Below the pieces are notes generated by a model. The model was not told the origin of the DNA. It made no database searches and saw only the letters and a list, made by a program, of their open reading frames with translations. The translations under genes were made by a program, and so were the position numbers. Below are positions 1,369-43,281 of a stretch of DNA of 43,281 nucleotides, piece after piece (the first letter of the stretch is position 1; every line of letters begins with the position of its first letter). The stretch comes from a virus (taxonomy: Duplodnaviria; Heunggongvirae; Uroviricota; Caudoviricetes), in IMG/VR virus record IMGVR_UViG_2909298281_000002. One strand, given 5' to 3'.

Positions 1369-1444
1369 GCCGATATAGCTCAGTTGGTAGAGCAGCGCAT
1401 TCGTAATGCGAAGGTCGTAGGTTCGACTCCTATTATCGGCACCA
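1369..1444 (+). tRNA. thrW: tRNA-Thr (anticodon CGU)
   Basis: 76-nt sequence GCCGATATAGCTCAGTTGGTAGAGC...GGTTCGACTCCTATTATCGGCACCA with cloverleaf features, anticodon loop TTCGTAA and encoded CCA end; known prophage integration target next to proA. Confidence 0.95.
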
Positions 1445-1460
1445 TTTAAATCAATAAGTT
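1400..1460. other. putative attL junction (3' end of thrW abutting the integrase gene)
   Basis: The integrase stop codon lies 15 nt after the tRNA CCA end. P22-type integrases recombine within the 3' part of thrW. Core limits cannot be set because no attR copy was found in the window. Confidence 0.4.
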
Positions 1461-2622
1461 ACACATCATTAGTACCTTCCTTATTTTTTGACTGGGACAA
1501 ATTTGGGACCGATGGGTTCAGAATCGAGTCTATTTGCCGTGCGTGTTCGGTAAGGTGATTAGGCGCGAGGTGAGCATATCGACGAACCATTTCGATAGAC
1601 TCCCAGCCACCCATTTCCTGTAACACTGACAACGGGACTCCGGCTTGAACCAGCCAACTTGCCCAGGTGTGTCTCAAGTCGTGAAATCTGAAATCATCAA
1701 TACCAGCTCGTCTCAGCGCCGCTTTCCAGGCTGTGTTTGCGTCATACCGCATCTTCCTTACTGTTGGCGCTTTCGTTCCGTCTGGTTTGGTACAGCTTTC
1801 CTTGTACACAAATACCCAACGGTGATGATTCCCGATTTGTTTTTTCAAAACGCGACATGCAGTATCATTCAGCGCAACGCCGATTGCGCGGTTTGATTTA
1901 CTCTCTTCCGGGTTTATCCATGCCACCCGGCGCTGCATATCTATTTGTTGCCATTCAAGGTTGATGATGTTCGAGCGTCTTAAACCTGTTGCCAGTGCAA
2001 ATTCAACAACAGACTTTAATGGCTCCGGACATTCATCAATCAGCCTTTGTGCTTCATGGGGCTCCAGCCAGCGGATCCGTTTATTCTTTGGTTGAGGCAC
2101 TTTAATAATTGGTGCCTTATCCAGCATTTTCCATTCACGCTCTGCGGCTCTTAGTAGGGCCTTTATAAATGAAAGATGCGTAGCCTTCGTTGCAACGGAC
2201 GCTGGTTTTGGCGTGTATTCTGGAACAGGTTTCCCTTTTTTTCTGCATGCTTCTGCCCTGAGTTTCCAGTTTTCCTCATGACGCCGGTTCGTCATTTTCT
2301 GCATTGCTGAATAAATTTTTGATTCAGTAATGTCTCTTAGTTGCATTCCTGCGAAATGTTGAAGCCAGAATCCGATCCGGCTTTTGTCATCGTCCAGTGA
2401 TTTTTTATGTGCTTTCTCTTCAAGCCACCTGACACACGCTTCCTCGAACGTTATATCAGGTATTTCACCAAGTTTGCTGACCCGCCATGCTTCAGCCTTT
2501 AGCTTGTCATGGAGTTCTGTCGCCTGCCTTTTGTCCTTTGTTCCAAGAGACTGTTTAAATCTTTTACCGTTCGGCAATGTGAAACTGGCGTACCATATTT
2601 CACCTCTGCGGAAGAGTGACAT
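1459..2622 (-). CDS. int: tyrosine site-specific integrase (P22-type)
   Basis: 387-aa ORF; near-identical over its length to the phage P22 integrase as I recall it (N-terminus [31 protein letters not shown]-terminal catalytic region with [10 protein letters not shown] and RYAHL); adjacent to thrW. Confidence 0.95.
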
Positions 2623-5423: not shown

Positions 5424-6014
5424 TTTGCTGCTCCTCATCATATCGACCCTGCAAGGTCGGTTGGTTTCTCCACAAAACAGAGAAGAACACCTGCGGTGAC
5501 TGCCGCCCGGATGGATTGGGTTATGAGCCCGTCGTCCGGTGATGCTCTTCTCTGTTTTGTAAAAAGAGCGGTACCAGCCGGAAGCAAGGGTACAAACTGG
5601 TACCGCCAAAGCAGTGGCTGTTGTGGTGGGGTTGTCACTCAGGCGTATGGTCAACCTGACAATCCGGTGTCCTCAACGGGGAAAGAGTAACCCCGCCATA
5701 CTTACCGCCGCGCCATTTCGCGGATTACCACAACGCTGAGAGCACTTAGCCAGTTACGGCACCACACTTTGTCGCGGCTCCATAAATGCCCTCATCGTTG
5801 CACCCTGGTCTCTTCCCAGGCGTCAAACCGAATCGCCACGCTGGTTAGGCGTCTTATCAGCATCATCATTGACTTGCACATTCCGGCTACCTGGTTTGTT
5901 TGCTCGAGCAAGGAGTGGATTGTCCCCTTTAACGTCACCAGACCGCTAACGACGCATGTGCCATACGCCGTGTTACAACCAAATTTTGTTTTAATCTTGC
6001 CTGTGTTGTGTTTC

Positions 6015-6056
6015 TTTTAGATACATTATGTATCTCATGGGTACATTGTCAAGTAT
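6015..6056 (-). promoter_or_regulatory. candidate PL-like early-left promoter with overlapping operator palindromes
   Basis: On the minus strand: TTGACA (plus 6047–6052), 17-nt spacer, ATAATG (plus 6024–6029). Overlapped by the palindrome GATACATAATGTATC and a GTACA half-site also present in the cI–cro intergenic region. Confidence 0.45.
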
Positions 6057-6080
6057 AAAAAAACCTGCCGAAGCAGGTTC
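6056..6080 (-). terminator. rho-independent terminator downstream of cI
   Basis: Minus-strand hairpin AACCTGC-ttcg-GCAGGTT followed by a run of seven T, starting 12 nt after the cI stop. Confidence 0.6.
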
Positions 6081-6091
6081 ATAAATATTGA

Positions 6092-6766
6092 TTAGGCCTT
6101 TATTGTGTATCTTCTTGGTTTTCCCGAGAAAATCACTGTACCAATTATAGAGCAATTACCGTTAATCTTAATGTAAGGCTCAGGCCAGTTTGGGTTTAAT
6201 GCTTTGAGATAACGCTGTGTTCCATCTTCTATCAATCGCTTGAAGGTGGTTTCGCCTGTATCGTGCATCAATGCAATAACGTCGTCACCGTGGCAGGCAG
6301 GGACTTCGGGATCAACAAAAATCATGTCTCCAGGGCGGTACTCATCAATCATTGAATCACCAATCACCCGCAAGATATAAGTCATTTCGCCACAGGGTAC
6401 AGGGCAGGGGTACGTTTCTGCTGTGCTCAAATCAACCTCAGAATAGCCAACTTCTTTCCATGCTCCGGCCTGTACCCATGATATGACAGGGACTAACGTT
6501 ATTTGTTTGTTAGTGATTGAAACATCAGGTTTTTTTGTGATGTTCGTTGTCTGGTGTTCTTGATCAAGCCATCCGACAGGCAGGTCGAAACATTTTTCGA
6601 TGTGCCGTGCCATGCTGTCACCGATATTTTTAGTAGCGCCATCCCCCATAAACCTGCTGGTTTGGGTTGGCTCGCGATCAATCATGGTGGCAAAGGATGA
6701 ATTTCCGCCAACACCATCTCTCAGTTTTCTGGCGTTAGACCGCCGGATGTCATGGATTGTTTTCAT
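6092..6766 (-). CDS. cI: CI-type prophage repressor (HTH domain plus LexA-like S24 autopeptidase domain)
   Basis: 224 aa; N-terminal helix-turn-helix; Ala-Gly cleavage site (VQAGAWKE); Ser nucleophile in GDSM and a downstream Lys (TFKRL); divergent from cro across an operator-rich intergenic region; no Shine-Dalgarno, consistent with a leaderless PRM-type message. Confidence 0.9.
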   Translation of the reverse strand: MKTIHDIRRSNARKLRDGVGGNSSFATMIDREPTQTSRFMGDGATKNIGDSMARHIEKCFDLPVGWLDQEHQTTNITKKPDVSITNKQITLVPVISWVQAGAWKEVGYSEVDLSTAETYPCPVPCGEMTYILRVIGDSMIDEYRPGDMIFVDPEVPACHGDDVIALMHDTGETTFKRLIEDGTQRYLKALNPNWPEPYIKINGNCSIIGTVIFSGKPRRYTIKA

Positions 6767-6856
6767 AACGAAATTAAAACCTTTGTACCGATAAGGTACA
6801 AGTATCTTGAAGGTTCATTTCAATCATGTAATATGTATACCGTAGGTACATATTGT
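6767..6856. promoter_or_regulatory. immunity switch region (OR operators with divergent PRM and PR)
   Basis: Perfect palindrome TTGTACC-gataa-GGTACAA (6784–6802) and a second GTACA-containing site near 6832–6853; PR-like TTGAAG (6807–6812), 16-nt spacer, TAATAT (6829–6834) upstream of cro. Confidence 0.6.
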
Positions 6857-7057
6857 ATGAAAGCGTATTGGGACTCTTTAACCAAAGAACAGCAGGGCGA
6901 GTTGGCCGGAAAAGTTGGCTCAACACCTGGCTACTTACGGCTGGTTTTCAATGGTTATAAAAAAGCCAGTTTTGTGCTGGCGAAAAAACTTGAGCAATGC
7001 ACGTCAGGTGCAATTACGAAATCTGACTTAAGACCGGATATCTATCCGAAAGATTAA
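6857..7057 (+). CDS. cro: Cro-like helix-turn-helix regulator (YdaS/Cro family)
   Basis: 66-aa product from the ATG at 6857 (MKAYWDSLTKEQQGELAGKVGSTPGYLRL...); the track ORF from 6752 would overlap the cI start and operators. Divergent from cI. Confidence 0.8.
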   Translation: MKAYWDSLTKEQQGELAGKVGSTPGYLRLVFNGYKKASFVLAKKLEQCTSGAITKSDLRPDIYPKD

Positions 7058-7088
7058 CAGAACACCTTCAATTTTTAACCACAGAACG

Positions 7089-7652
7089 ATGAGGCTAACC
7101 GTGGGTAAGTATCACTGGAAAGTAGAAAAACAGCCTGAGTGGTACGTGAAAGCTGTCAGAAAAACTATCGCAGCGTTGCCGGGTGGTTACGCTGAAGCAG
7201 CTGACTGGCTGGATGTAACAGAGAACGCATTATTTAACCGCCTTCGTGCCGATGGCGATCAGATTTTCCCGCTGGGATGGGCAATGGTTTTACAGCGCGC
7301 GGCTGGCACTCACTACATTGCGGATGCTGTCGCACAGTCTGCTGGTGGGGTGTTCGTATCGCTTCCTGAAATTGAGGAAGTAGAGAACGCCGATATAAAC
7401 CAGCGCCTGCTGGAAGTCATCGAACAGATCGGGAATTACTCAAAGCAGATTCGTTCGGCAATCGAAGATGGGGTCGTGGAGCCACACGAGCAGACAGCAA
7501 TTAATGATGAGTTGTATCTGTCAATTTCGAAGCTCCAAGAGCATGCAGCACTGGTCTACAAAATCTTTTGCGCTCCAGAAAAGAGTGACGCCCGCGAGTG
7601 TGCAGCTCCGGGCGTCGTGGCGTTTTGTGTCTGTGGAGAAACTAACGCATGA
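7089..7652 (+). CDS. early regulatory protein in the cII position (possibly YdaT/CII-like)
   Basis: 187-aa ORF directly after cro; family assignment is by position and weak recall only. Alternative GTG start at 7101 has a better Shine-Dalgarno (GAGG). Confidence 0.65.
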   Translation: MRLTVGKYHWKVEKQPEWYVKAVRKTIAALPGGYAEAADWLDVTENALFNRLRADGDQIFPLGWAMVLQRAAGTHYIADAVAQSAGGVFVSLPEIEEVENADINQRLLEVIEQIGNYSKQIRSAIEDGVVEPHEQTAINDELYLSISKLQEHAALVYKIFCAPEKSDARECAAPGVVAFCVCGETNA

Positions 7653-8485
7653 ACAGTTTAACGGCAAATAACCGTTTGTCGCAACAGCTGGTGGTCAGCG
7701 TCGCTGAACACCTGTTGTTACGGCATGAATGCAGATTACCAAATCACCTGGCTGTAAGTAACCACAGAGAACTTTACCTGACTGTGGGGGGCGAGTTGTG
7801 CAGGAACTTAACCGCTGGTTTAGTGACGGAAGAGGACTTTATGTTCATGTTATTCGTTGGGAGCCAGAAACACAGCGCGTTATCTATCTTCGCAAAGACT
7901 ACCCGCATGAGTGCTTTAGTCCTTTGTGGAAATTCAGGCGTGATTTTATTGAGTGTGAAGGACCACCAGCACATTGATTCTGCCATTCCGGGACGTTACA
8001 CTGTTCAGGCACCTTATAAAGCGGGTGCCGGGATTGGCGTCCTGGAATTGATCAAGGCGATATATGACGCGCCAGCGTCTTTTTTATCGTCCGCATTTGC
8101 TCACATCAAAGTTATGGTGGGCTGGGCGGGGGCATCGAAAGATGCGCCGGTTTCCTTGATCACCGGTTACGCCAACCCCGTTCAGTTCACCACCAGCGAA
8201 ATTGGCGTTTCCGGTGGTGGAAGTATTTCACCGATCAAGGAGGCTGCCATCATGGCTACTGTCCCAGCCCTCACTCGTCTGAATGATGAAGACTTACATA
8301 AACTCAGTTATGTAACAACAGCACTACGTGCTCTGCGCAAGGTAACTCTTTCAGATCCGCAGGCGCATCAACTTCTGGTAGAAACCCTTCTTAACTTGCA
8401 GGCTGAACGTATTCGTTTGGCGGATAAGGCTAATCTTCATATTCACCGTCTCCTGAATATCAGCGGAGGGCATCGTCATGCTTAA
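7649..8485 (+). CDS. hypothetical replication-region protein
   Basis: 278-aa ORF; ATG overlaps the upstream stop (ATGA), indicating translational coupling; no motif recognised. Confidence 0.65.
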   Translation: MNSLTANNRLSQQLVVSVAEHLLLRHECRLPNHLAVSNHRELYLTVGGELCRNLTAGLVTEEDFMFMLFVGSQKHSALSIFAKTTRMSALVLCGNSGVILLSVKDHQHIDSAIPGRYTVQAPYKAGAGIGVLELIKAIYDAPASFLSSAFAHIKVMVGWAGASKDAPVSLITGYANPVQFTTSEIGVSGGGSISPIKEAAIMATVPALTRLNDEDLHKLSYVTTALRALRKVTLSDPQAHQLLVETLLNLQAERIRLADKANLHIHRLLNISGGHRHA

Positions 8486-8714
8486 TCCGTTGATCCTCAA
8501 TATTCACCGTTTACTTCAGCGTAAAAAAATATCAATTCCTACAGTTGGGCAGTGGTACACCACACCTGCAGGGCATGTTCTACGTGTTAGCCTGGTTGAC
8601 CGTGAATGCCAGAAGGTGATTTGTGAACCGCTTGGCCGTAATTACCGCGTCAGTATGCCGCTTATAGCCTTTCGCTCCGGAAAAAACATGAAGCATCTCG
8701 GAGGTGCAGCATGA
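8478..8714 (+). CDS. hypothetical small protein
   Basis: 78-aa ORF with GGAGGG Shine-Dalgarno 8 nt upstream, overlapping both neighbouring genes at start and stop. Confidence 0.55.
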   Translation: MLNPLILNIHRLLQRKKISIPTVGQWYTTPAGHVLRVSLVDRECQKVICEPLGRNYRVSMPLIAFRSGKNMKHLGGAA

Positions 8715-9529
8715 GTATGGAGCTGATGGTTAAAGCGATGAAAATTCGAGTGGGTAATCCATTGCGAAAACTGGTTCTGATCAAGCTGGCTGATAATGCC
8801 AGCGATCAGGGTGAGTGCTGGCCCAGCTACCAGCATATTGCTGACCAGTGCGAGATTAGCAAACGTTCTGTGATGAATCATATTGCGGCCCTTTGTGAGT
8901 CCGGGCTGGTAAAAAAAGTCACCCGGAAAGGTGAAAAAGGTAACTCAAGTAATATCTATCTCCTTCATCTGGATGGTGCAGGAGATTCACTAGGGGGTAG
9001 TGCAAATAATTCACTATCTGGTGCAGCAAATTCACCAGGTAGTGCAGGAGTTGCACTAGGGGGTAGTGCAGGAGATTCACCCAGAACCAGTCACTCTTTT
9101 GAACCAGTCAAAGAACCAGTCAATGAACCAATAGCTGTTGGTGCATCTGCTGATGAGTCTGTGCGAGTTCGTTCAAACCGACCGGAATACTCTCCGGAGT
9201 TTGAGCAGGCATGGCTGGCATATCCCAAACGTGCTGGTGGCAATTCAAAATCTGCAGCCTTCAAAGCCTGGAAAGCCCGTTTGAATGAGGGGGTAAACCC
9301 CGAAACCATGCTGGAAGGTGTGAAACGCTATGCGGGCTGGGTATCTGCGATGGGTAACAGCGGCACACAATTTGTGAAACAGGCTGTCACGTTCTTTGGT
9401 CCGGATCGTCATTTCGAAGAATCCTGGGAAGTTCCTGCGGTATCTGCAGCCAGACGTGAGGACCCGTACTTCAAAGCCAGTTACGACAACGTGGACTACA
9501 GCCAGATCCCGGCAGGATTCAGGGGGTGA
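8711..9529 (+). CDS. replication initiation protein (O-like, N-terminal HTH domain) containing the origin iterons
   Basis: 272 aa; N-terminal winged-HTH replication-initiator-like region (LVLIKLADNASDQGECWPSYQHIADQCEISKRSVMNHIAAL); GGAGGTG Shine-Dalgarno; internal low-complexity linker encoded by direct DNA repeats, as in lambda O. Confidence 0.8.
   Translation: MSMELMVKAMKIRVGNPLRKLVLIKLADNASDQGECWPSYQHIADQCEISKRSVMNHIAALCESGLVKKVTRKGEKGNSSNIYLLHLDGAGDSLGGSANNSLSGAANSPGSAGVALGGSAGDSPRTSHSFEPVKEPVNEPIAVGASADESVRVRSNRPEYSPEFEQAWLAYPKRAGGNSKSAAFKAWKARLNEGVNPETMLEGVKRYAGWVSAMGNSGTQFVKQAVTFFGPDRHFEESWEVPAVSAARREDPYFKASYDNVDYSQIPAGFRG
8976..9131. repeat. putative origin of replication: five about 15-bp iterons plus three GAACCAGTCA repeats
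   Basis: Iterons GTGCAGGAGATTCAC and variants at 8976, 9000, 9021, 9042 and 9066, spaced 21–24 bp; then GAACCAGTCA at 9084, 9101 and 9113; all inside the initiator gene. Confidence 0.7.
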
Positions 9530-10751: not shown

Positions 10752-11549
10752 ATGAATAATCTGATGGTTATTGATGGTATTGAAGTTCGTCGTGATGCTT
10801 ATGGGCGTTACAGCCTGAACGATCTGCACAGGGCTGCTGGTTCTCTGGATAAGCATAAGCCTGCATTCTGGCTCCGCAATGAGCAAACTGAACGTTTAAT
10901 AAGCGAGTTGCAGATTTGCAACTCGGTCAATATAGAACCAGTTAACGTTATTCGTGGCGGAAATAACCAGGGGACGTATGTCTGCAAAGAACTGGTGTAT
11001 GCCTATGCAATGTGGATCAGCCCGTCATTCCATCTGAAGGTGATCCGTACTTTCGACATGGTAACCAGTGCACCGGAAAAATTATCCGGACAGGCTGCTG
11101 ACAAGATGCAGGCTGGTGTGATTCTGCTGGACTTTATGCGCCGGGAATTAAACCTGTCTAACTCTTCAGTGCTTGGAGCCTGTCAGAAACTCCAGGAGGC
11201 TGTTGGCTTACCGAATCTGGCACCGCGCTATGCCATTGATGCTCCTGCTGACGCGCCTGATGGCTCAAGCCGCCCCACGCTGTCACTGAGTGCACTGCTG
11301 AAGCAGTATGGTATCCGCCTGACAGCTAATCAGGCATATCACCAGATGGTGAAGCTGGGGATCGTCGAGCAGCGCGAACGATACAGTCGTACCGCGATTA
11401 ACAACATCAAAAAATTCTGGTCGCTGACAGCGAAAGGCTGCATGTTCGGCAAGAACATCACCAGTCCCGCAAATCCGCGCGAGACGCAGCCGCATTTCTT
11501 CGAATCCCGATTCCCTGAGCTGTTAAAGCTGCTCGATACCGTACATTGA
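10752..11549 (+). CDS. KilA-N domain protein (antirepressor-like)
   Basis: 265 aa with N-terminal KilA-N-like region (IDGIEVRRDAYGRYSLNDLHRAAG...KPAFWLRNEQTERLISEL); AAGAGGAG Shine-Dalgarno. Confidence 0.8.
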   Translation: MNNLMVIDGIEVRRDAYGRYSLNDLHRAAGSLDKHKPAFWLRNEQTERLISELQICNSVNIEPVNVIRGGNNQGTYVCKELVYAYAMWISPSFHLKVIRTFDMVTSAPEKLSGQAADKMQAGVILLDFMRRELNLSNSSVLGACQKLQEAVGLPNLAPRYAIDAPADAPDGSSRPTLSLSALLKQYGIRLTANQAYHQMVKLGIVEQRERYSRTAINNIKKFWSLTAKGCMFGKNITSPANPRETQPHFFESRFPELLKLLDTVH

Positions 11550-11556
11550 GGTGATC

Positions 11557-12546
11557 GTGAGAGCACTACTGACCCCTGAAATTGCCCCGCGTATGGGGAT
11601 CGTATTGTTCAGACCAGGTTCAGAGCTGATGCCCCTATTTATGCAGGGGCGTGTCCTGCTGGAGCCTGAGCCGGAACGTTATTCATCTTTCGCCAGTGGT
11701 GCCGTTCCGGCGGCATCACAACCGCTGGCGGATGATCCTGCCGTTCGGGCCGTGTTCCGCAATGAGGCAGTGATCCGTCGTGCTGGTGGCGTGGAATGTC
11801 TTGAAAGCTGGTTACTTCGTGAAAAAGGCTGTCAGTGGCCTCATTCCGACTGGCACAGCGAGAACATGACCACAATGCGACATGCTCCGGGCGCAATCCG
11901 TCTGTGCTGGCACTGCGATAACCAGCTGCGCGATCAATTCACGGAACGGCTGGAATCAATGGCAACGGATAACTGTGCCCGCTGGGTGTTGTCTGTCGTG
12001 CGTCGGGATCTCGGTTTTGATGATAGTCACGTTGTGACAATGCCGGAACTGTGCTGGTGGCTGATTCGTAATGACCTGGCGGATGCCTTACCGGAAAGTG
12101 CAGCCCGTAAGGCACTTAGATTACCGAAGCCTGTTGTGCCGTCTGCTACCCGGGAAAGTGACCTTGTGCCTTCGGTTCCTGCCACCAGCATCATCCAGGA
12201 TAAAGCGAAAAAGGTGCTGGCGCTGAAAGTGGATCCTGAGTCGCCGGAGTCTTTTATGTTACGCCCAAAACGTCGCCGCTGGGTTAATGAAAAGTACACG
12301 CGCTGGGTTAAGACACAGCCGTGTGCATGTTGTGGAAAGCCCGCTGATGATCCCCACCACCTGATAGGTCACGGTCAGGGTGGAATGGGTACAAAAGCGC
12401 ATGATCTCTTTGTGTTGCCTTTGTGCAGAAAGCATCACGACGAGCTGCATGCGGATACCGTGGCATTTGAAGAGAAGTATGGCTCCCAGCTGGAGCTGAT
12501 ATTTCGTTTTATCGATCGTGCGCTGGCAATTGGCGTGCTGGCCTGA
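11557..12546 (+). CDS. DUF968-domain protein (YdfU-like, Cys/His-rich C-terminus)
   Basis: C-terminal CACCGK...HHLIGHGQGG...CRKHHDELH motif typical of DUF968 proteins. Start uncertain: GTG at 11557 has GAGG 6 nt upstream; the track uses GTG at 11551. Confidence 0.75.
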   Translation: MRALLTPEIAPRMGIVLFRPGSELMPLFMQGRVLLEPEPERYSSFASGAVPAASQPLADDPAVRAVFRNEAVIRRAGGVECLESWLLREKGCQWPHSDWHSENMTTMRHAPGAIRLCWHCDNQLRDQFTERLESMATDNCARWVLSVVRRDLGFDDSHVVTMPELCWWLIRNDLADALPESAARKALRLPKPVVPSATRESDLVPSVPATSIIQDKAKKVLALKVDPESPESFMLRPKRRRWVNEKYTRWVKTQPCACCGKPADDPHHLIGHGQGGMGTKAHDLFVLPLCRKHHDELHADTVAFEEKYGSQLELIFRFIDRALAIGVLA

Positions 12547-12575
12547 TTTTGTGGAGAATTTTGTGGAGAAGGTTG

Positions 12576-12926
12576 ATGCGTGATATGTATGAAGTATTGG
12601 ACCTCTGGGGAGCATGGGCTGCAGCAGATAACAGTGGTGTGGACTGGCAGCCTGTTGCTGCAGGGTTTAAAGGTTTACTACCTCATGGAAAGAAAACACG
12701 CCAACAATGCGATGATGATGAAGGAATCATGATTGACAGCTGTGTTGCGCGATTGCGGAAATATAAGCCAGAAGAATATGAACTGATCATTGCTCACTTT
12801 GTTATCGGTATTTCACTCCGTTCAATAGCAAAGAAACGGAAATGCTCTGACGGGTCAATCAGAAAACAACTTCAAGCAGCAATAGGAGTGATTGAAGGTA
12901 TTTTGTTGATTATTAAGCCCCTGTAG
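12576..12926 (+). CDS. late-gene antiterminator Q (QuuD-like)
   Basis: 116 aa from the ATG at 12576 (GGAGAAGG Shine-Dalgarno); LDLWGAWAAADNSGVDWQPVAAGFKGL...CDDDEG pattern matches the DLP12 QuuD-type family as recalled. Confidence 0.85.
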   Translation: MRDMYEVLDLWGAWAAADNSGVDWQPVAAGFKGLLPHGKKTRQQCDDDEGIMIDSCVARLRKYKPEEYELIIAHFVIGISLRSIAKKRKCSDGSIRKQLQAAIGVIEGILLIIKPL

Positions 12927-12934
12927 GGCTTAAT
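12912..12934. terminator. convergent-gene hairpin ATTAAGCCC-ctgta-GGGCTTAAT spanning the stops of Q and the cassette membrane gene
   Basis: Perfect 9-bp inverted repeat seen directly; no U-run on either side, so terminator function is uncertain. Confidence 0.35.
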
Positions 12935-13514
12935 AATTCATATGAATTCTGTTTCCGAGATAATATAATCCAAAGAAAGTTGATACTAAGAGTTGCCAAA
13001 CGAGGAAAGTAAATACAACAGTATAAACCATTAAAACAATACTGTTTTGATAGACATTGATTAATGGTGAAAATATAGCATTAAGTATTATTATAACAAT
13101 GCTTAATGCTGTTAAAAAAGAGAATAGCATGCAAAGAAATAAGCGTCTGGTCAGAACCTCCTCTGAATTTACTACTTTTCCATTTTCTTTTGTTACTTTT
13201 ATTTCAATAGAGGCATTTCTTTCATTGCTAATCAATGGTAAATCAATCTCAGCTCTATTGAAAGTTGCTATGGCGGCCAGAGCGGCAATATAAAACCCTG
13301 GTAGGTTAGAGATAAATGAAACGATTGATTTAATGAAACCATTGTCATCAAATAAATCTTTGACAGGGATTTTTAATAGAATGAAAAGTACTGCTGTGAT
13401 AGAAGTAAGTAGAATTGGTGCTACCCAATCATATGCAGCTTTGCCGCTAATACCTTTAATAAAAAGATATCCAAACGGCTTGCCTAGATGAGAGAAAACT
13501 GAAAGTATTGGCAT
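12930..13514 (-). CDS. predicted four-helix integral membrane protein (second gene of the accessory cassette)
   Basis: 194 aa; ATG with GAGG 8 nt upstream, 7 nt after the upstream stop; four hydrophobic segments (about residues 25–47, 60–85, 125–150, 155–185); about 30% GC against about 50% for the flanking phage DNA. Confidence 0.8.
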   Translation of the reverse strand: MPILSVFSHLGKPFGYLFIKGISGKAAYDWVAPILLTSITAVLFILLKIPVKDLFDDNGFIKSIVSFISNLPGFYIAALAAIATFNRAEIDLPLISNERNASIEIKVTKENGKVVNSEEVLTRRLFLCMLFSFLTALSIVIIILNAIFSPLINVYQNSIVLMVYTVVFTFLVWQLLVSTFFGLYYLGNRIHMNY

Positions 13515-13521
13515 AATAACC

Positions 13522-14544
13522 TCACATCAAATCTATCATTTTCACAACAAACTCTAGTTCAATTTTAACATATGAATCCTTCAGGCGCGAATTAAAGTTA
13601 TCGATAATGCTTTTCTTAATAAATGTTTTTTCTAAATTATTAAGATTGATGTTTGAGGTTTTGAAATCAACCTGCCTTGGTTTATTTGTTTCAGGATCTT
13701 GGAATTTAACCTTTAATTTATCATAACCACCATTCATTTTTTTATTGAAATGAGATGCTACATTTTTAATCCATCCAATAACATTGTCACCATGATTTGG
13801 AAGTAATTTTAATGTACTTTCAGTCGGAATGTAAGGTGAATTAACATCAGGAGCATTAATTGTTCCGAATTGATCCTTGACTAATATGACATCTGATAAT
13901 CCTTTTTGGCTTATTTTATTAAAAAGCTCCTTGTCTAACATTCCTGTAAATTCAAATATTGGTTTGTATCGTATTTTTACTTCTTTTTTTGATGTTGTAG
14001 AAATAACGTTAGTTGGATGTTTTGCGGTAAATAAGTCTTCATTGTCTTTCGCTACTTCAAAGAGAATTTTGTCTAAAAAACTATTTAACCGGGCCGTAGA
14101 TACACCTGGGGTAGATGTACAAATCATATCATAGGTTCTTTTATTTCCATTTAATGATATGACAACATAGGTAGAAACTTCATAGCCTTCACCTTGTTCA
14201 TATTTTGGTTGGATTTCAACGCGTTCATTAGTATTTGTATTTTTTACAACGGTAGTACTTCCATTTTTATCAACACTATTAATAAGAAGGACAATATGCG
14301 TGGGTGAGTTATCTGGAAGTAAAGGATAAAGTTGTACATCTTGGAGAGTAACTACAATATTCCCAGAATCATATGAATGAACGAGTCCCTTTTGTTTAAC
14401 AATCAATGGGGCAAGCATGTACATTTCCGGAACAGGACATATACACTGGGCTTTTACCTCTTGTGTTGCCTTGGTTCTAAACTTTGTGTCAATGGTCAGA
14501 CTATGATGAGTAACGAGTCTTTCGCTAGCATTTAATTTTGCCAT
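13522..14544 (-). CDS. hypothetical soluble protein (first gene of the accessory cassette), no recognisable domain
   Basis: 340-aa ORF, ATG at 14544; no Walker, HxD or nuclease motif seen; Lys/Asn-rich and AT-rich codon usage; tightly coupled to the downstream membrane gene. Confidence 0.8.
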   Translation of the reverse strand: MAKLNASERLVTHHSLTIDTKFRTKATQEVKAQCICPVPEMYMLAPLIVKQKGLVHSYDSGNIVVTLQDVQLYPLLPDNSPTHIVLLINSVDKNGSTTVVKNTNTNERVEIQPKYEQGEGYEVSTYVVISLNGNKRTYDMICTSTPGVSTARLNSFLDKILFEVAKDNEDLFTAKHPTNVISTTSKKEVKIRYKPIFEFTGMLDKELFNKISQKGLSDVILVKDQFGTINAPDVNSPYIPTESTLKLLPNHGDNVIGWIKNVASHFNKKMNGGYDKLKVKFQDPETNKPRQVDFKTSNINLNNLEKTFIKKSIIDNFNSRLKDSYVKIELEFVVKMIDLM

Positions 14545-14581
14545 GAAATCATCCGATTATGATTTTTCGATTTATTTGTTA

Positions 14582-14610
14582 ATCTTACAAAAACGCTAAC
14601 GCGTACGCAA
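14582..14610 (-). promoter_or_regulatory. candidate sigma70 promoter for the accessory cassette
   Basis: Minus strand TTGCGT (plus 14605–14610), 17-nt spacer, TAAGAT (plus 14582–14587), about 35 nt upstream of the 340-aa gene start. Confidence 0.35.
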
Positions 14611-14655
14611 AAATTATTGTATCGTGTTAAGAGTGGTTACTTCGCCACACAGCTT

Positions 14656-14685
14656 AAACCCGCCGTCGAGCGGGTTTTGTCGTTT
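14656..14685 (+). terminator. tR'-like intrinsic terminator in the late leader (PR'/qut expected just upstream)
   Basis: AAACCCGC-cgtcga-GCGGGTTT hairpin followed by TGTCGTTTCT, about 145 nt upstream of the holin; analogous to the lambda 6S terminator that Q overrides. No PR' hexamers could be pinned. Confidence 0.5.
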
Positions 14686-14829
14686 CTGGGGCTGGGGATT
14701 CGTTGGTCCTGGTCTATTCCGCAGTTATCCATTGGTTCGGCTTCTTTGACGTTTCCGCTTCTAATTTGCTGTACATGATGTTCCCTCAATTTGCACCTGC
14801 TGTATCAGCGAGGTGAGAGATAACTACAA

Positions 14830-15156
14830 ATGCCTCATAACCCAAATACCTGGCTGGAGTTGTTCCAGAGCTGGTGGTGTGGAGACACACCGCTGGGCGC
14901 AGTGATTATGTCGATCGTTATGGCTGGCTTGCGCATTGCCTATTTTGGCGGTGGTGGTGGCTGGAAACGAAAAACGCTCGAGATTTTGCTCTGTGGTGCT
15001 CTGACGCTGACTTTTGCATCCGCTCTTGAGTATGTCGGATGGCCTAAATCTCTTTCTGTTGCCATTGGTGGCGGCGTTGGGCTGATCGGGGTCGATGCTA
15101 TTCGTGGGGCTGCAATGAGAGTAATCGGTAATAAGTTTGGTGGCTCTAAGGAGTAA
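14830..15156 (+). CDS. holin (lambda S family)
   Basis: 108 aa with three hydrophobic segments and a charged C-terminus; first gene of the lysis cassette, directly upstream of the endolysin. Confidence 0.85.
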   Translation: MPHNPNTWLELFQSWWCGDTPLGAVIMSIVMAGLRIAYFGGGGGWKRKTLEILLCGALTLTFASALEYVGWPKSLSVAIGGGVGLIGVDAIRGAAMRVIGNKFGGSKE

Positions 15157-15159
15157 TTT

Positions 15160-15636
15160 ATGCAGGTACTAAATTCCCAGCGTAAAGCTTTCCTGGATAT
15201 GGTGGCATGGTCAGAGGGAACGGATAACGGGCGACAACCGACACGTAACCACGGTTATGACGTTATTGTCGGTGGAGAACTCTTCACTGATTACTCCGAT
15301 CACCCTCGCAAGCTTGTCACGCTAAACCCGAAACTCAAATCAACAGCTGCAGGCCGTTATCAACTTCTTTCGCGCTGGTGGGATGCTTACCGCAAGCAGT
15401 TAGGGCTGACAGACTTCTCTCCTAAAAGCCAGGATGCTGTTGCATTACAGCAGATTAAAGAGCGTGGCGCTTTACCGATGATTGATCGCGGCGATATTCG
15501 TCAGGCTATCGATCGTTGCAGCAATATCTGGGCGTCGTTACCTGGTGCAGGTTACGGTCAGTATGAACATAAAATCGGTGACCTGATTTCCCGGTTTAAA
15601 GAGGCTGGTGGGGTGGTAAATGAAGTTGAGCTATAA
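15160..15636 (+). CDS. R: endolysin (lambda R-type lytic transglycosylase)
   Basis: 158 aa, near-identical to lambda R as recalled (QRKAFLDM.AWSEGTDNGRQ.TRNHGYDVIVGGELFTDYSDHPRKLVTLNPKLKST); AAGGAG Shine-Dalgarno. Confidence 0.95.
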   Translation: MQVLNSQRKAFLDMVAWSEGTDNGRQPTRNHGYDVIVGGELFTDYSDHPRKLVTLNPKLKSTAAGRYQLLSRWWDAYRKQLGLTDFSPKSQDAVALQQIKERGALPMIDRGDIRQAIDRCSNIWASLPGAGYGQYEHKIGDLISRFKEAGGVVNEVEL

Positions 15637-16012
15637 GCTGGTTATCGCTGCATTCTTCTTTACTGTCATCGGTTCTTTCATCTGGTCTGCCAACCACTAC
15701 TACAGCAAATATCAGCACGAAAAGAAACATGCTGATGAGGCTGTACAAAATGCTGAATCTGCAACAGCCATTACCCGTAACGTCCTGCAATCACTGCAAA
15801 TCGTCAATACAGTTATAGAGGTTAACCAGCATGCAAAACAGCAGATCGCACTGGAGTCACAGAGAACCCAGAAAGATATCAAAGTGGCTGTTGCGGATGA
15901 TGATTGTGCTGCACGCCTTGTGCCTGCTGCCGCTGCTGAGCGGTTGCGGAAGTACGCGGACAGTTTACGTACAAGTTCCGGCAGTACCACTCCCGACGAA
16001 TCTGATCGCTGA
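15620..16012 (+). CDS. i-spanin (Rz-like)
   Basis: 130 aa with an N-terminal transmembrane helix and a charged periplasmic domain; overlaps the endolysin end and contains the Rz1 start in another frame. Confidence 0.8.
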   Translation: MKLSYKLVIAAFFFTVIGSFIWSANHYYSKYQHEKKHADEAVQNAESATAITRNVLQSLQIVNTVIEVNQHAKQQIALESQRTQKDIKVAVADDDCAARLVPAAAAERLRKYADSLRTSSGSTTPDESDR

Positions 16013-16154
16013 AACCTCGCAACCAGTTATTCCTGAGCCGCTGACTTTTGAGGGCAGCCTAGATTTGAACGTTAGTCTGTTATCGGCGTTGGGTCAATGT
16101 AACCTTGACAAGGCTAGCATCAGACGGATTGAACAATCACGATTCTCACAATAG
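15897..16154 (+). CDS. o-spanin lipoprotein (Rz1-like)
   Basis: Starts inside Rz in another frame; signal peptide with lipobox (MMIVLHALCLLPLLSGC) and a proline-rich mature region. The track ATG at 15831 would add a hydrophilic extension atypical of a signal peptide. Confidence 0.7.
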   Translation: MMIVLHALCLLPLLSGCGSTRTVYVQVPAVPLPTNLIAETSQPVIPEPLTFEGSLDLNVSLLSALGQCNLDKASIRRIEQSRFSQ

Positions 16155-16330
16155 CGAGTTTTTATCATAAGAAAGGTGCTTTTCACTAAATCCCTGCATT
16201 TGAAGCTGAAGATGGAAAGAAACGCTACTGGGTATACTACTACTGGTCGCTTATTCTGAATCAGAAGAGAACGGCGTCCTTCAGCTCGAAGAGTCGGCTA
16301 TAAACAGGCACTTTGGGTGCCTGTTAATGA

Positions 16331-16726
16331 TTAGTCCTGCATGAATCTCTCTCTTTCTATTTCATAACCGTCGCTTTCTTCTCGGCAGTTTTGACATAAG
16401 AGATCTCCATAGTAACCTTGTAAGTTATAAGCTTCTTCTAGCTCATAGCCAGAGATAACCTTAGAGCAACCGTTATGGTGCCCGCCTGGATTTCTAACAC
16501 CACCACATGGGTGAGAAAGGAAAGGTTGCAATACCCTCTTTTGCGGTGCAGAAAGACTATCAAATCCTTTGGTTACAGCTAACTTAGCGATTCCACTAAC
16601 TTTGCCATCTTCATGATAAAATGCGTCACAATTAAGCATTGTATTGAGTAATGATTCTACTTCGTCAGACACTGGAAATACCTCTCTATAAACAAAAGTA
16701 ATAGCTATCACACAAAGTTTAAGCAC
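16331..16726 (-). CDS. hypothetical Cys/His-rich protein (YbcV-like by position)
   Basis: ORF in an AT-rich island after the lysis genes; C-terminal C-x8-HH-x2-C ... C-x2-C cluster. Start uncertain: GTG at 16726 (131 aa) or ATG at 16639 (102 aa), neither with a clear Shine-Dalgarno. Confidence 0.55.
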   Translation of the reverse strand: MLKLCVIAITFVYREVFPVSDEVESLLNTMLNCDAFYHEDGKVSGIAKLAVTKGFDSLSAPQKRVLQPFLSHPCGGVRNPGGHHNGCSKVISGYELEEAYNLQGYYGDLLCQNCREESDGYEIERERFMQD

Positions 16727-16844
16727 ATAAACTAAAATAAATCAAAATGTTAATGATAATCGTATAGTAAAAAGAAAAGGCTGAAGTAGCCGAGAGGTAG
16801 CAATAGCAGGTTAAGGCAGGCACTTAGTAAGTGCCTGCCACTGG

Positions 16845-17054
16845 TTAGTAACAAGATGGTGTATTGTTGAATCTGTAAGAGAGGCGAACTATTTCAGAAA
16901 CCCCTTTTCGGTTTAACAATCGCCTTATATTCTCTGGATTTTTGTAAATAAAAGGATTCCTTAGATCCTCGAACACTCCTCCTGCAATGCAAATCAAATA
17001 TTCCAGATCTTCTTGTGTTGGTAAGGTTGAAAGTTTGTTATTTGCATTATTCAT
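16845..17054 (-). CDS. hypothetical small protein (YbcW-like)
   Basis: 69 aa from the ATG at 17054 with AGGAG 9 nt upstream (MNNANNKLSTLPTQEDLEYLICIAGGVFEDLRNPF...); resembles DLP12 YbcW as recalled. Confidence 0.6.
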   Translation of the reverse strand: MNNANNKLSTLPTQEDLEYLICIAGGVFEDLRNPFIYKNPENIRRLLNRKGVSEIVRLSYRFNNTPSCY

Positions 17055-17175
17055 TTTACAGCTCCTAATTATTGCCGTTATTGGCGTGGTGCATGATAGG
17101 AAGTTTGTGATTTTTAACGGTAGCTGGGGCAAGCTTTTTGTGAATCCTATGCACATCATCAAATCGAGTTTTTTA

Positions 17176-17451
17176 ATGCCACAACGAACCCCAAAAGCCT
17201 GCCGTGTTCGCGGCTGCCGCCATACCACTACTGACCCGTCAGGCTACTGCGAAAGCCACAAAAGCGAAGGCTGGAAGCAATACAAGCCAGGCCAGTCCCG
17301 ACACCAGCGCGGTTATGGTTCGCGGGGTTGTCCCTCATGCTCGCCAGTCCTGTGCGGGGGTGGAAGAAACAGGACACTCACACAGATTCTTGTAGGTCGA
17401 TGCTATTCCTTTCTGGATTATCCCGATGCCATTCATGCAAGGGCTGTATAA
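17176..17451 (+). CDS. Cys-rich ORF resembling the N-terminal zinc-binding part of cos-phage HNH endonucleases; no H-N-H motif
   Basis: MPQRTPKACRVRGCRHTTTDPSGYCESHKSEGWKQ...HQRGYGS resembles the start of HK97 gp74-type HNH proteins as recalled, but no HNH catalytic motif follows in any frame. No Shine-Dalgarno. May be a remnant. Confidence 0.3.
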   Translation: MPQRTPKACRVRGCRHTTTDPSGYCESHKSEGWKQYKPGQSRHQRGYGSRGCPSCSPVLCGGGRNRTLTQILVGRCYSFLDYPDAIHARAV

Positions 17452-39800: not shown

Positions 39801-40225
39801 CATCGTTTGATTACGGCACTAAATCCACGAATAACACTGGTGCGCATACTCATAGTTTAAGTGGCAGCACGAATGCAGCTGGTAATCACAGCCATAGAGA
39901 TGGCCGTCGATTTAACCCCAGTGTTTTTAAAGATACTTATCAATATGGTTATACAAGCTCAGGTCAAAATACCTGGGGTGTACAAGGCTCAGTAGGTATG
40001 TCTACGGGGTGGTTAGCTAATACCAGTACAGATGGTAATCATAGCCACTCACTGTCCGGCACAGCAGCATCTGCAGGTGCACACGCGCATACTGTCGGTA
40101 TTGGTGCTCATACGCACTCCGTTGCGATTGGTTCACATGGACACACCATCACCGTTAACGCTGCTGGTAATGCGGAAAACACCGTCAAAAACATCGCATT
40201 TAACTATATTGTGAGGCTTGCATAA
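36827..40225 (+). CDS. stf: side tail fibre protein Stf
   Basis: 1132 aa from the ATG at 36827; N-terminus matches lambda Stf ([37 protein letters not shown]); long Ala/Ser-rich repetitive shaft; C-terminus with repeated His-x-His boxes (GAHTHS, GNHSHS, GAHAHT, GSHGHT) ending ...[11 protein letters not shown]. Confidence 0.9.
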
Positions 40226-40806
40226 TGGCATTCAGAATGAGTGAACAACCACGGACCATAAAAATTTATAATCTGCTGGTCGGGACTAATGAATTTATTG
40301 GTGAAGGTGACGCATATATTCCGCCTCATACAGGTCTGCCAGCAAACAGTACCGATATTGCACCGCCAGATATTCCGGCAGGCTTCGTGGCTGTTTTCAA
40401 CAGTGATGAGGCATCGTGGCATCTCGTTGAAGATCATCGGGGTAAAACGGTTTATGACGTGGCTTCCGGCGACGCGTTATTTATTTCTGAACTCGGTCCG
40501 TTACCGGAAAATGTTACCTGGTTATCGCCGGGAGGGGAATATCAGAAGTGGAACGGCACAGCCTGGGTGAAGGATACGGAAGCAGAAAAACTGTTCCGGA
40601 TCCGGGAGGCGGAAGAAACAAAAAACAGCCTGATGCAGGCAGCGAATGAGCATATTGCGCCACTTCAGGATGCTGTAGATCTGGAAATCGCAACGGAGGA
40701 AGAAATCTCGTTGCTGGAAGCATGGAAAAAGTATCGGGTATTGCTGAACCGTGTTAATACAACAACTGCACCGGATATTGAATGGCCAGTAGCACCTATA
40801 GGGTAA
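40225..40806 (+). CDS. tfa: tail fibre assembly protein Tfa
   Basis: 193 aa, near-identical to lambda Tfa ([77 protein letters not shown]); ATG overlaps the stf stop. Confidence 0.95.
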
Positions 40807-41666
40807 ATTCGTAATGATTACCTAAATACGTTATTCTTTTGTTCAAAAAGTGATTTTGCTATAGGTAGGGAGTATGTTCTTGGATTAAGAATAAAAAATC
40901 GCCATGAAAGAGCTTCATGGCGAGTACATAAACGTACAAAATGTGATGAAAGTAGAGTGGCGTAAGCCACTATATTAAGATATGACAATAGCGAACAAAA
41001 GTAAATAACATTTTATGGACGTTTAATTGTTAATTATAAAAACTAGAGTGCCCGATATTGTTTATCTTGCTTTAAAATAATGTACTCAAACCAAATTTTT
41101 GAGCTAAAAGCTCAAATAATATAAATGCAATGATAATGTTTAATAAGACAATTAGCTTGCTTTGTATTTTCATTTCGGAATACTGTTAAGTAACTTTGAT
41201 GACCCTAACAATAGATCGGAATTTTCTTAGAGTCAATGGTCACTGTTTTTGTTTGCAAAGCAAATGTTTTGGTGGTTATAAGTTGTCTTAATATAGTCAC
41301 GCATGCAACTTGTTCCATGCGGAGATTAAAGATTGGAATATAACGCGAAGATGGAATTAAATTACATTTGCAATAATCAATTTATTATTACTCAATAATT
41401 ACCGATATTATTATTGTAAATTAATCATTAGAGTGCAAAAAGAAATATAACGGCAAAATAAGAGGACGATAGCTGAGAAAAAAGCGTGCTTTCCCAATCT
41501 GGGGCAAATCACGTCTGAATGACACCTGAAAACAGGTAGTAGCCTCAAGAAGGCTTGGAATATTCTTCTTTAATATTATGTAATTCATTGATTTTTCGTG
41601 TACGATTTTAAGACATTTATTCCAAGAAAAATTTTTAACTCTTTGATTTTTCGACTCTGTATCATC

Positions 41667-41727
41667 GGTCTCGAAAACCGGAGTAGGGGCAACTCTACCG
41701 GGGGGGCGAATCCCCCTCTCTCCGCCA
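41667..41727 (+). other. tRNA-Ser 3'-half fragment (pseudo-tRNA, probable att-site relic)
   Basis: GGTCTCGAAAACCGGAGTAGGGGCAACTCTACCGGGGGGGCGAATCCCCCTCTCTCCGCCA matches the anticodon stem-loop (anticodon CGA) through the 3' end of the serU-type tRNA-Ser as recalled, with an altered T-loop and no 5' half. Confidence 0.6.
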
Positions 41728-42310
41728 CTTTATCAATGACTTATCTCCCGACTTCCCGCCTTGCTTTTCCTAAACAGAACAATCGTAGAATATTCTTGAA
41801 GGGTTAGATCGTCACTGTTTTCTGTTCGATACTGTGACATTCAGCACTTGATTCGCTATGGATCTGACAGGAAGGTTTCGAGCGAAAATCTGCAGTTATT
41901 CAGTCGTTTTCTTATCGGTCACCATTATTCTTTTAGACATTGATCCTACAAAGCTGCCGCAAAGTTGGTGGTGGGAACTGAAGTTGCGTAGAGAAGGGGT
42001 CAATACCCGGAGGCAAACATGGGCTGGCAAAAGTGTAGCGGTATTAGGCGCAGCTATTTAGCCTAGTTATGTTTTATGAAAACTTGATATCATATAAGTG
42101 TCTTACTTATTGGCTGTAAATAAGGTTTTCTAAGGAATTGTTTCTTTAGTATCATTTGTAACTGTAACGGAATTTATAATCCTTTACTTTATTTTTACGG
42201 TGTTTTTTATCACACCCTATTTTTTATGTGGTTTTTTATACTGAAGTTTGGCAAAGTGAACTTTATATGCATATACTTCATCCTGGTTTCAGTTAAATTG
42301 GGTGGATGAT

Positions 42311-43054
42311 ATGGCAACTACATGTTCAGTTATATTGATTTTGGAGCCCTTTGATGTTTATTTCGGAAAAGAGAGTGTGTTTCTGGATAGAGGTTTATCT
42401 GTACTTGTCGACTCTAGCTATAGAGATTTTTTCCTGACATATCCTGAAAGAGTGATAGTGGCGGATTTTGGCGCTGAGTTTATTAGTCGCTATTTGAAAG
42501 CTAATAACTTAAGGGATATTTCTGATTGTAGGGAATATCCATCTTATTTAAAAATAAACTTTGCTGACTTCAGTTTAATTAAAGGATTAATTAGTTGGGC
42601 TAATCACTGTGCTGAATATATAGAAATTTTTGATGAGTCTATTGCTTTTACATGTCTCTCTGCATTTTCTTCTGAAAAACAATTTGGAGTATTTCTGTTT
42701 GGATGTTTGAAAAGCACAGGGGCTAAAGTTAAAACGATTATTCATACGGATTTATCTGCACCATGGCATCTTAAGGATATATCATCAAGATTATATCTCA
42801 GCGAAAGTTTACTAAAGAGGAAATTGAAAGAAGAGGGGGTATCATTCAGTAAGATCCTACTTGATGAGAGGATGCAAATGGCTGAATATTTACTCAGCAC
42901 TCGTTGTTATCCTATTAGTAAAGTAGCTAAGGTCTGTGGTTATGCCAGTGTCTCATACTTTACTTATGTATTTAGACGTTATTTTGGTGTTTCTCCAAGT
43001 CAATACTCTCAGAGGAGTTCAGAAAGTAAAATTCTTACTCACCAGGGAATCTAA
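42311..43054 (+). CDS. AraC/XylS-family transcriptional regulator (AppY/EnvY/GadX-like)
   Basis: 247 aa from the ATG at 42311 (the track start is a GTG at 42302); C-terminal AraC-type double HTH (WHLKDISSRLYLSESLLKRKLKEEGVSFSKILLDERMQMAEYLL...YASVSYFTYVFRRYFGVSPSQY); lies in very AT-rich DNA. Confidence 0.8.
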   Translation: MATTCSVILILEPFDVYFGKESVFLDRGLSVLVDSSYRDFFLTYPERVIVADFGAEFISRYLKANNLRDISDCREYPSYLKINFADFSLIKGLISWANHCAEYIEIFDESIAFTCLSAFSSEKQFGVFLFGCLKSTGAKVKTIIHTDLSAPWHLKDISSRLYLSESLLKRKLKEEGVSFSKILLDERMQMAEYLLSTRCYPISKVAKVCGYASVSYFTYVFRRYFGVSPSQYSQRSSESKILTHQGI

Positions 43055-43057
43055 TCA

Positions 43058-43281
43058 TTGTTCTTGCCCCCTTATTTCCAGACAGGGGGTGTATCTTAAG
43101 TTAACGTTACCCGCTGACGTCGATATTCTCGCGGAGAGCGATAACCCAACGCACTGTGCGGATGGTTTTCATTGTAATGTTCGATCGCCACTGCAAGATT
43201 ATGCAATGCCGTTCTTATATTCGGTTTCGGCATGAACGCGATGTAGTCTTCCTTCATCGTTTTCACGAACCTTTCTGCCAT
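43058..43281 (-). mobile_element. IS2-like insertion sequence (IS3 family), terminal part only; continues beyond the window
   Basis: Terminal inverted-repeat-like sequence, minus strand TGTCTGGAAATAAGGGGGCAAGAACA, resembles the IS2 end as recalled; adjacent transposase C-terminus; starts 3–6 bp after the AraC stop. Confidence 0.6.
43096..43281 (-). CDS. IS3-family transposase OrfB, C-terminal fragment truncated by the window edge
   Basis: ...[16 protein letters not shown]...[22 protein letters not shown] matches the conserved C-terminal end of IS2-type transposases; the ORF is open to the window boundary. Confidence 0.7.

Follow-up and report, generated by a model that had tools for sequence, protein, structure and literature searches.

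The DNA analysed here, 43,281 nucleotides of a member of the Caudoviricetes (IMG/VR record IMGVR_UViG_2909298281_000002; hereafter the window), carries a lambdoid prophage with the tRNA gene thrW at its left end. Near its right end, downstream of the tail fibre assembly gene tfa, lies a partial tRNA-Ser gene, which we call the relic. A sequence-only reading of the window had recognised it as the 3' half of a serU-type tRNA-Ser, running from the anticodon stem-loop to the 3' end with changes in the T-loop, and alignment bears this out: positions 41666-41727 on the plus strand, CGGTCTCGAAAACCGGAGTAGGGGCAACTCTACCGGGGGGGCGAATCCCCCTCTCTCCGCCA, are identical at 59 of 62 positions to nucleotides 29-90 of serU, the tRNA-Ser(CGA) gene of Escherichia coli K-12. 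The length of 61 nt given in that reading fell one base short of the full 62 nt, and the continuation of the match for 278 nt past the terminal CCA had escaped it. The relic spans the second base of the anticodon stem to the CCA, with the anticodon CGA at 41672-41674, and is made up of a core (the anticodon stem-loop) and a B' part (variable arm, T arm, 3' acceptor strand and CCA). All three mismatches to K-12 serU (41705 T>G, 41706 T>G and 41708 A>G) fall in the T-loop. Because the relic is part of a 340-nt alignment to the serU locus, with 96.8% identity to K-12 and an E value of 3e-163, its match to serU is not a chance one.

The relic is non-functional as a tRNA. ARAGORN called thrW at 1369-1444 as the only tRNA in the window and nothing at the relic, where Rfam likewise gave no tRNA, either at the gathering threshold or at E ≤ 10. 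The 28-nt 5' half of serU had no match across the whole window at up to three mismatches, which agrees with the earlier statement that a 5' half is missing. A complete cloverleaf, a 5' acceptor strand and a D arm, as a working tRNA-Ser has them, are all absent. At permissive thresholds, Rfam returned around the relic only a weak plastid 3' untranslated region (3'UTR) model on the opposite strand and a sub-threshold sX4 match; both were dismissed as spurious, the plastid one reflecting the tRNA-Ser-like sequence.

To the right of the CCA, the identity to the serU locus extends over another 278 nt (41728-42005, plus strand). These make up the serU-proximal start of the chromosomal spacer that leads to yodB and are collinear with K-12 (L003, 2968-2691). 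The spacer belongs to the core genome: of 5,426 complete E. coli genomes, 5,389 have a match to it. The window's allele also occurs at the native, prophage-free serU locus of an O169:H41 strain (NZ_CP062824, 157851-162976; L049), where the serU flank is 99.2% identical to the captured block, and the transfer therefore ran from chromosome to phage. We considered a special chromosomal breakpoint at +278 and rejected it, as the native O169:H41 allele runs on normally past that point. In the same strain, yodB is missing between serU and zinT.

At 42005/42006 the spacer meets an internal point of the insertion sequence (IS) ISEc33, about 55 nt from its right end, and the two sides of this novel joint share no sequence. 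The last ~55 nt of ISEc33, an IS630-family element, occupy 42006-42060 on the plus strand, as judged from the match to ISEc33 ends and the position within the IS, and hold the end of the transposase gene, the terminal inverted repeat and a TA. A joint made by the IS itself, through simple insertion or a deletion adjacent to its terminus, was rejected because the joint is internal to ISEc33. With a chimeric query of ISEc33 interior and the region upstream of the next gene, no genome was found in which a full ISEc33 stands beside that gene. The gene in question, at 42302-43054 on the plus strand with a promoter-like site upstream at 42248-42277, is an AT-rich cargo gene for an AraC-family (YdeO/GadX-like) regulator. 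Its best NCBIfam match is YdeO at 147 bits, far below the cut-off of 348, and it is annotated as an AraC-family gene in every related locus, being a constant companion of the relic block. The window ends in a remnant of an IS3-family transposase (43096-43281, minus strand), an open reading frame (ORF) that runs off the window end and is annotated in relatives as a partial 'integrase core domain-containing protein' or as ISEc48-like; no further element is expected between it and the thrW attR.

The left side of the relic is phage DNA. The tfa gene (40225-40806, plus strand; an ORF annotated as such in GN4751, ev099, mEp332 and VG48B2) is the last structural gene before the cargo. It is followed at 40807-41665 (plus strand) by an AT-rich arm with a GC content of 0.29-0.35 that stops at T41665, where identity to serU starts. 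From the end of tfa onward (40664-42005), the window matches, at 97% identity, the right end of the lambdoid prophage that occupies serU in strain 190, and the arm portion alone (40664-41665) is 97.4% identical to the attR arm of that prophage. The order in strain 190 is mtfA, intact serU, P' arm and integrase at one end, and J, lom, tail fibre, tfa, AT-rich arm, partial serU, spacer and yodB at the other. In phage SerU-LTIIb (GenBank KU052038), the same partial tRNA-Ser is annotated as a pseudogene at a native attR, and serU is a recognised site of lambdoid prophages (PMC7067040).

The AT-rich arm is a genuine P arm of a serU-type attP, since in eight genomes the window-type arm is fused to the core, a P' arm and a serU-type integrase gene (int), at junctions of tandem prophages. 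Such chromosomal P-O-P' junctions, for example in NZ_CP027544 (1319934-1320572; L051) and NZ_CP176406 (2016245-2016780; L052), indicate tandem prophages, and several of the serU-type int genes at them are frameshifted or disrupted by an IS. Within the arm of the window, the 11-mer CTTGGAATATT at 41554-41564 (plus strand) is a candidate arm-type integrase binding site: it occurs twice in tandem in the P' arm at the strain 190 attL and has only two matches at up to one mismatch in the whole window. In the attP of Citrobacter phage Chris1, three TTGGTAT repeats occupy the corresponding place.

The relic starts at serU nucleotide 29, which is the same base as at the native attR of strain 190, SerU-LTIIb and MB15 and in the attP of Citrobacter phage Chris1 (ON041214). 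This supports the earlier view that it is the kind of copy that a tRNA-targeting tyrosine integrase leaves at the distal junction. The site of the crossover can be narrowed further in strain 190, where the reconstituted serU at attL has a compensatory G..C pair, supplied by the phage, in its variable arm, whereas attR retains the A..T pair of the host; the crossover therefore lies in the anticodon stem-loop (CGGTCTCGAAAACCGGAGT). The window has A..T, like the strain 190 attR. The A-T to G-C change in the variable-arm stem of serU is seen at the strain 190 attL (L010, 12710-12799), so that the tRNA-Ser(CGA) made in lysogens of this phage differs slightly from the usual one. Many records matching 41560-41800 show the attR place only, consistent with the same serU variant at their attL. 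In the window, a 3' copy of the tRNA from the crossover region thus has a P arm on its 5' side and native host DNA on its 3' side, and this P-O-B' structure with its host flank identifies an attR, not an attP.

This attR is not at a boundary of the present element, the other end of which is thrW and not serU. The window starts with proA and the intact tRNA-Thr(CGT) gene thrW (1369-1444, plus strand; ARAGORN, and 71.8 bits with the Rfam tRNA model), which forms the left end, or attL, of the prophage. Next comes the resident tyrosine integrase of 387 amino acids (1459-2622, minus strand), which abuts thrW by its 3' end; the assignment follows from the ORF list and matches to tyrosine recombinase families, and the gene is annotated as an integrase beside a tRNA-Thr in GN4751. 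The thrW-type core at attL lies at 1399-1462 (plus strand), and no direct repeat of it was found within the window. In GN4751, the closest complete genome, which has a mosaic relative of this prophage with ends ~99% identical to the window, an identical 64-nt thrW repeat follows 263 nt past the position matching the window end, before yagP and paoD. The sequence-only reading had held that the relic is not the attR of the resident integrase and that the thrW-derived attR should lie downstream, outside the window, and GN4751 agrees with it on both counts. Since the thrW repeat there comes after the block, the relic, the spacer, the IS debris and the AraC-family gene lie inside the thrW-bounded prophage. 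The relic is not a boundary of an island at this locus.

The block is not confined to this prophage. At 98.1-98.6% identity, 41400-43281 is found in the deposited genomes of phages ev099, mEp332 and PhiR70_1, all three of which have a lambda-sized integrase; in ev099 and PhiR70_1, it lies between tfa and a pair of genes for a 356-amino-acid integrase and an excisionase. It also forms the right end of att-lambda prophages beside ybhB and bioA (VG48B2, OkiPb01706 and 22AR0750), and it occurs at the thrW locus of E7476 and of O157:H7, where a P4-like element comes after the degraded lambdoid remnant that holds it. The AraC-family gene is carried along in ev099, mEp332, PhiR70_1, the att-lambda prophages and the O157:H7 thrW region. 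The joint at 42005/42006 is present in 537 of 5,426 complete E. coli genomes (~10%) and in 30 IMG/VR contigs, and has no exact match among 185,579 species-representative genomes. All transplanted copies that we examined have the identical joint and the same flank alleles. The identical joint indicates a single origin and is most simply explained by one capture and subsequent spread. We found no paper on such a serU relic inside phage genomes, nor relevant literature on ev099 or mEp332.

The block consists of a P arm, serU nucleotides 29-90, serU-yodB spacer, an ISEc33 remnant, the AraC-like gene and an IS3 remnant. Most likely, the relic is a fossil attR (P arm, core and the 3' part of serU) that was captured in one illegitimate event together with 278 bp of serU-flanking chromosome and has since spread as lambdoid cargo. 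An ancestral lambdoid phage would have integrated at serU, its tyrosine integrase crossing over in the anticodon stem-loop, and a single illegitimate recombination 278 bp outside the prophage would then have fixed attR and host flank into a phage genome. This could have happened by aberrant excision in the manner of lambda bio phages, a route that would need the later gain of a new int-attP module. Alternatively, an incoming phage with the ISEc33-AraC cargo may have recombined with a serU lysogen by homology-facilitated illegitimate recombination, through one homologous crossover in the tail-fibre region and one illegitimate crossover, with no need for a defective intermediate. The block would have settled in the non-essential DNA that separates the tail-fibre genes from attP, from where modular recombination could have brought it to phages with other integrase types, the thrW type here and the lambda type in ev099; its tRNA fragment, having no tRNA function, would decay neutrally. 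As would be expected from aberrant excision, P-O-B' and the 278-nt spacer are found within ev099, mEp332 and PhiR70_1, and the joint is free of homology. The phages and prophages that carry the block today have complete int modules with other specificities. A review (PMC13492144) covers imprecise excision as a way for host DNA to enter virions, as well as the concept of moron cargo.

Several points weigh against this account. We infer both the capture, for which no intermediate was found, and the position of the window's thrW attR, which is taken from GN4751. Either aberrant excision or phage-lysogen recombination could have produced the block, and packaging of the block is suggested by deposited phage records. 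Finally, two serU-type P arms precede one and the same block, and the relic may not be entirely inert.

The two left arms are unrelated to each other and join the block at the same core base. The AT-rich lambdoid arm precedes it in the window, ev099 and others, and at nine of the 30 IMG/VR loci; at the remaining 21, as in O157:H7 TR01 and E7476, an arm with pinE and a GIY-YIG gene takes its place. The pinE-GIY-YIG arm, too, is a genuine arm of a serU attR: in MB15, it terminates an e14-like prophage next to yodB. An independent capture behind each arm was rejected on account of the identical right-hand joint and the same flank alleles, and the presence of one block behind two arms therefore implies that the left arm was exchanged through the relic after the capture. 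A trace of such an exchange is visible in the lineage of the window and GN4751. From 41705 rightwards, their block haplotype falls in a clade whose other members stand behind the GIY-YIG arm, while their left arm most resembles those of lambdoid phages with the block; this mismatch places one breakpoint within 41665-41705, the core included.

These observations raise the question of whether the relic is still usable as a recombination site, acted on by the serU-type Int (with or without Xis) of a co-resident prophage. Its recombination with other att sites of the serU type would then exchange the right arms of prophages or lead to chromosomal rearrangement. Such use would concern its present activity only and would be compatible with a fossil origin. 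The relic retains the core and a complete P arm; a block of single origin stands behind two arms at the same core base, and both arms also occur at a native serU attR beside yodB, in strain 190 and MB15, respectively. The breakpoint of the window lineage falls in an interval of at most 40 nt that contains the core, for which a uniform homologous crossover over ~1.9 kb would give a chance of roughly 2%. On the other hand, this argument is post hoc and comes from one lineage. Moreover, 41705/41706 is a mutational hot spot, with both GT and GG on both arms, and setting these two sites aside widens the breakpoint interval to 41666-41878 and raises the chance to ~11%. Other mosaics (L021 and L047) arose by ordinary homologous recombination inside the block, and none of the hybrid sites that integration into the relic would be predicted to create at thrW or att-lambda was identified. 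Tandem lysogeny accounts for the P-O-P' junctions that were found, and several serU-type int genes are frameshifted. We therefore regard present use of the relic by an integrase as unlikely. The wider proposal that the block is a portable, competent att site and homology patch, exchanging right arms of prophages among thrW, att-lambda and serU by way of serU-type integrases or of recombination with chromosomal serU, is doubtful to the same degree; if true, it would join phages with unrelated integrases in one recombination network.

The sequence-only reading had itself offered two explanations for the relic, neither of which survived. The first was an older or second integration event, which at this locus would mean that a serU-specific phage beside the thrW prophage left its distal tRNA copy. 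Partial 3' copies of tRNA genes are indeed typical of such events and tandem or nested elements are common at thrW, the P4-like element after the thrW attR repeat of O157:H7 being an example. Yet the locus has neither a serU gene nor a 5' half of one, and the 278 nt past the CCA are spacer from the serU locus, ~1.8 Mb away on the K-12 map. With the block inside the thrW attL-attR interval and its joint identical in deposited phages and at att-lambda, a second integration here is very unlikely. In O157:H7 TR01 (L005), the thrW attR repeat after the relic block (10812-10858) is immediately followed by a P4-like integrase gene (11020-12201) and satellite genes, the thrW 3' copy having evidently served a second element as its attachment site in turn.

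The other explanation took the relic for an attP remnant, which here would mean the P-O-P' site of a serU-specific module, the int module of which has since been replaced. It is true that serU nucleotides 29-90, from the same base, are found in the attP of Chris1 and also in Klebsiella phages. A true attP or attL, though, has a diverged P' arm within ~20 nt of the CCA, followed by int. In Chris1, identity to serU starts at the same base as in the window and runs to the CCA, past which come a diverged P' arm, in which TTGGTAT is repeated three times, and the integrase gene; at the strain 190 attL, three TTGGnATAT repeats lie in the P' arm between the CCA and int. The window, by contrast, has no P' arm or int after the core but 278 nt of near-identical host spacer after the CCA, and its variable-arm pair is the A..T of the host rather than the G..C of the strain 190 phage. 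An attP origin is accordingly highly improbable.

We then examined variation among the copies of the relic. Over 41560-41800, no complete genome matches the window at 100%, the best reaching 99.6%. When the copies are aligned, the T-loop substitutions of the window (41705-41708, plus strand) prove to differ in distribution: TT>GG at 41705-41706 also occurs in GN4751 and several IMG/VR copies, and no other aligned copy has the A>G at 41708. Most other copies keep the native T-loop, and most have a perfect tRNA part. The copies form a series, GGGGGTT, GGGGGGT and GGGGGGG, with a 1-nt contraction in addition (L018 and L020). This G-run series (41700-41708; IMG/VR loci L018-L047) lies at the border of T-stem and T-loop and is seen behind both types of left arm, and would be either a recurrent hot spot of run extension or the outcome of exchange immediately left of the run. 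Substitutions that extend a run beside a homopolymer can arise by dislocation-type mutagenesis. The T-loop changes fit young, neutral, run-extending substitutions at a run of five G in a sequence no longer under selection. In one copy (L024; IMGVR_UViG_2537561945_000005), an insertion of ~1.35 kb, presumably an IS, splits the T-loop region, which is further evidence that the relic is dispensable.

Conservation of the tRNA part does not exceed that of its surroundings: 5 of its 62 columns vary, against 8 of 278 in the flank, small samples in both cases; two of the five are gaps from BLAST end-trimming in mEp332, which leaves three real substitutions. It is hence extremely improbable, despite the perfect tRNA part of most copies, that the fragment is kept as a functional RNA (a tRNA-derived fragment, a decoy or a processing signal for the cargo gene), as it is not conserved above its neighbours, tolerates substitutions, a 1-nt deletion and an IS insertion, has no associated promoter-like or terminator-like site and matches no RNA family beyond the weak, spurious plastid one on the opposite strand.

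Elsewhere in the window, the prophage shows further features of its kind. Compared with GN4751 (L016), the int end and the right end are ~99% identical and the structural genes ~97%, while the immunity/replication and Q-lysis-proximal segments (5990-9454 and 12542-17308) are unrelated or diverged, as is typical of a lambdoid mosaic. In the early region, isrK (64 bits, 8009-8085) and a C4 antisense RNA (82 bits, 8110-8197) adjoin each other on the plus strand, a pair that suggests a c4-antirepressor immunity module of the P1/P7 type in this thrW lambdoid prophage. A full-length match to the Rfam sRNA family IS009 (214.5 bits; gathering score 117) at 40568-40766 on the plus strand lies inside the tfa ORF (40225-40806), and this 'sRNA' family may simply be a conserved segment of the tfa gene. 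As for the AraC-family cargo gene, we presume that it could be among the prophage-borne GAD/LEE-type regulators described for enterohaemorrhagic E. coli.

The closest known counterparts of the relic are the attR pseudo-tRNA-Ser copies of SerU-LTIIb and strain 190, with which the window shares the sequence, the start base, the P arm and the first 278 nt of spacer. Those copies stand at a real boundary between prophage and chromosome, run on into yodB and have an intact serU at the other end. The copy in the window, unlike them, is cut at +278 by an IS fragment, lies inside a thrW-bounded prophage and is also found in phage genomes. At the right end of CP4-6 in K-12, a 59-nt thrW repeat (L004, 36207-36265) is likewise a 3' tRNA fragment left by a tyrosine integrase. 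Repeats of this type mark the boundary of their own element, whereas the relic marks a boundary that no longer exists where it now lies. A partial tRNA gene inside a prophage is not necessarily the boundary of an island, and taking it for one would be misleading at the thrW locus, including the Sp1 region of O157:H7.

The block also resembles morons in being an AT-rich insert in the non-essential region between tail fibre genes and attP, with an autonomous regulator gene and IS debris. It differs from morons in general in that the cargo keeps the physical scar of its chromosomal excursion, namely attR and host flank. Each phage that carries it gains a 340-bp stretch homologous to the serU locus, on which RecA or Red could act to bring about exchange between prophages or rearrangement of the chromosome.

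Specialised transducing phages offer the third comparison. Lambda bio and lambda gal phages carry a P-O-B' att junction, host DNA on one side and an illegitimate novel joint. The block in the window has the same three parts: a prophage-type att junction, contiguous host DNA and a novel joint. Unlike lambda bio and lambda gal, it is natural, old and widespread and holds 278 bp of host DNA, and the phages with it are not defective and have integrases of other specificity. With attR, host flank and novel joint all still readable, the block is unusually clear natural evidence that the att-proximal cargo of lambdoid phages gains chromosomal DNA by illegitimate events at a former site. Pseudo-tRNAs at att sites and host DNA at prophage ends are both of known kinds, and the block is an ordinary but tidy example of them that leaves the general understanding unchanged.

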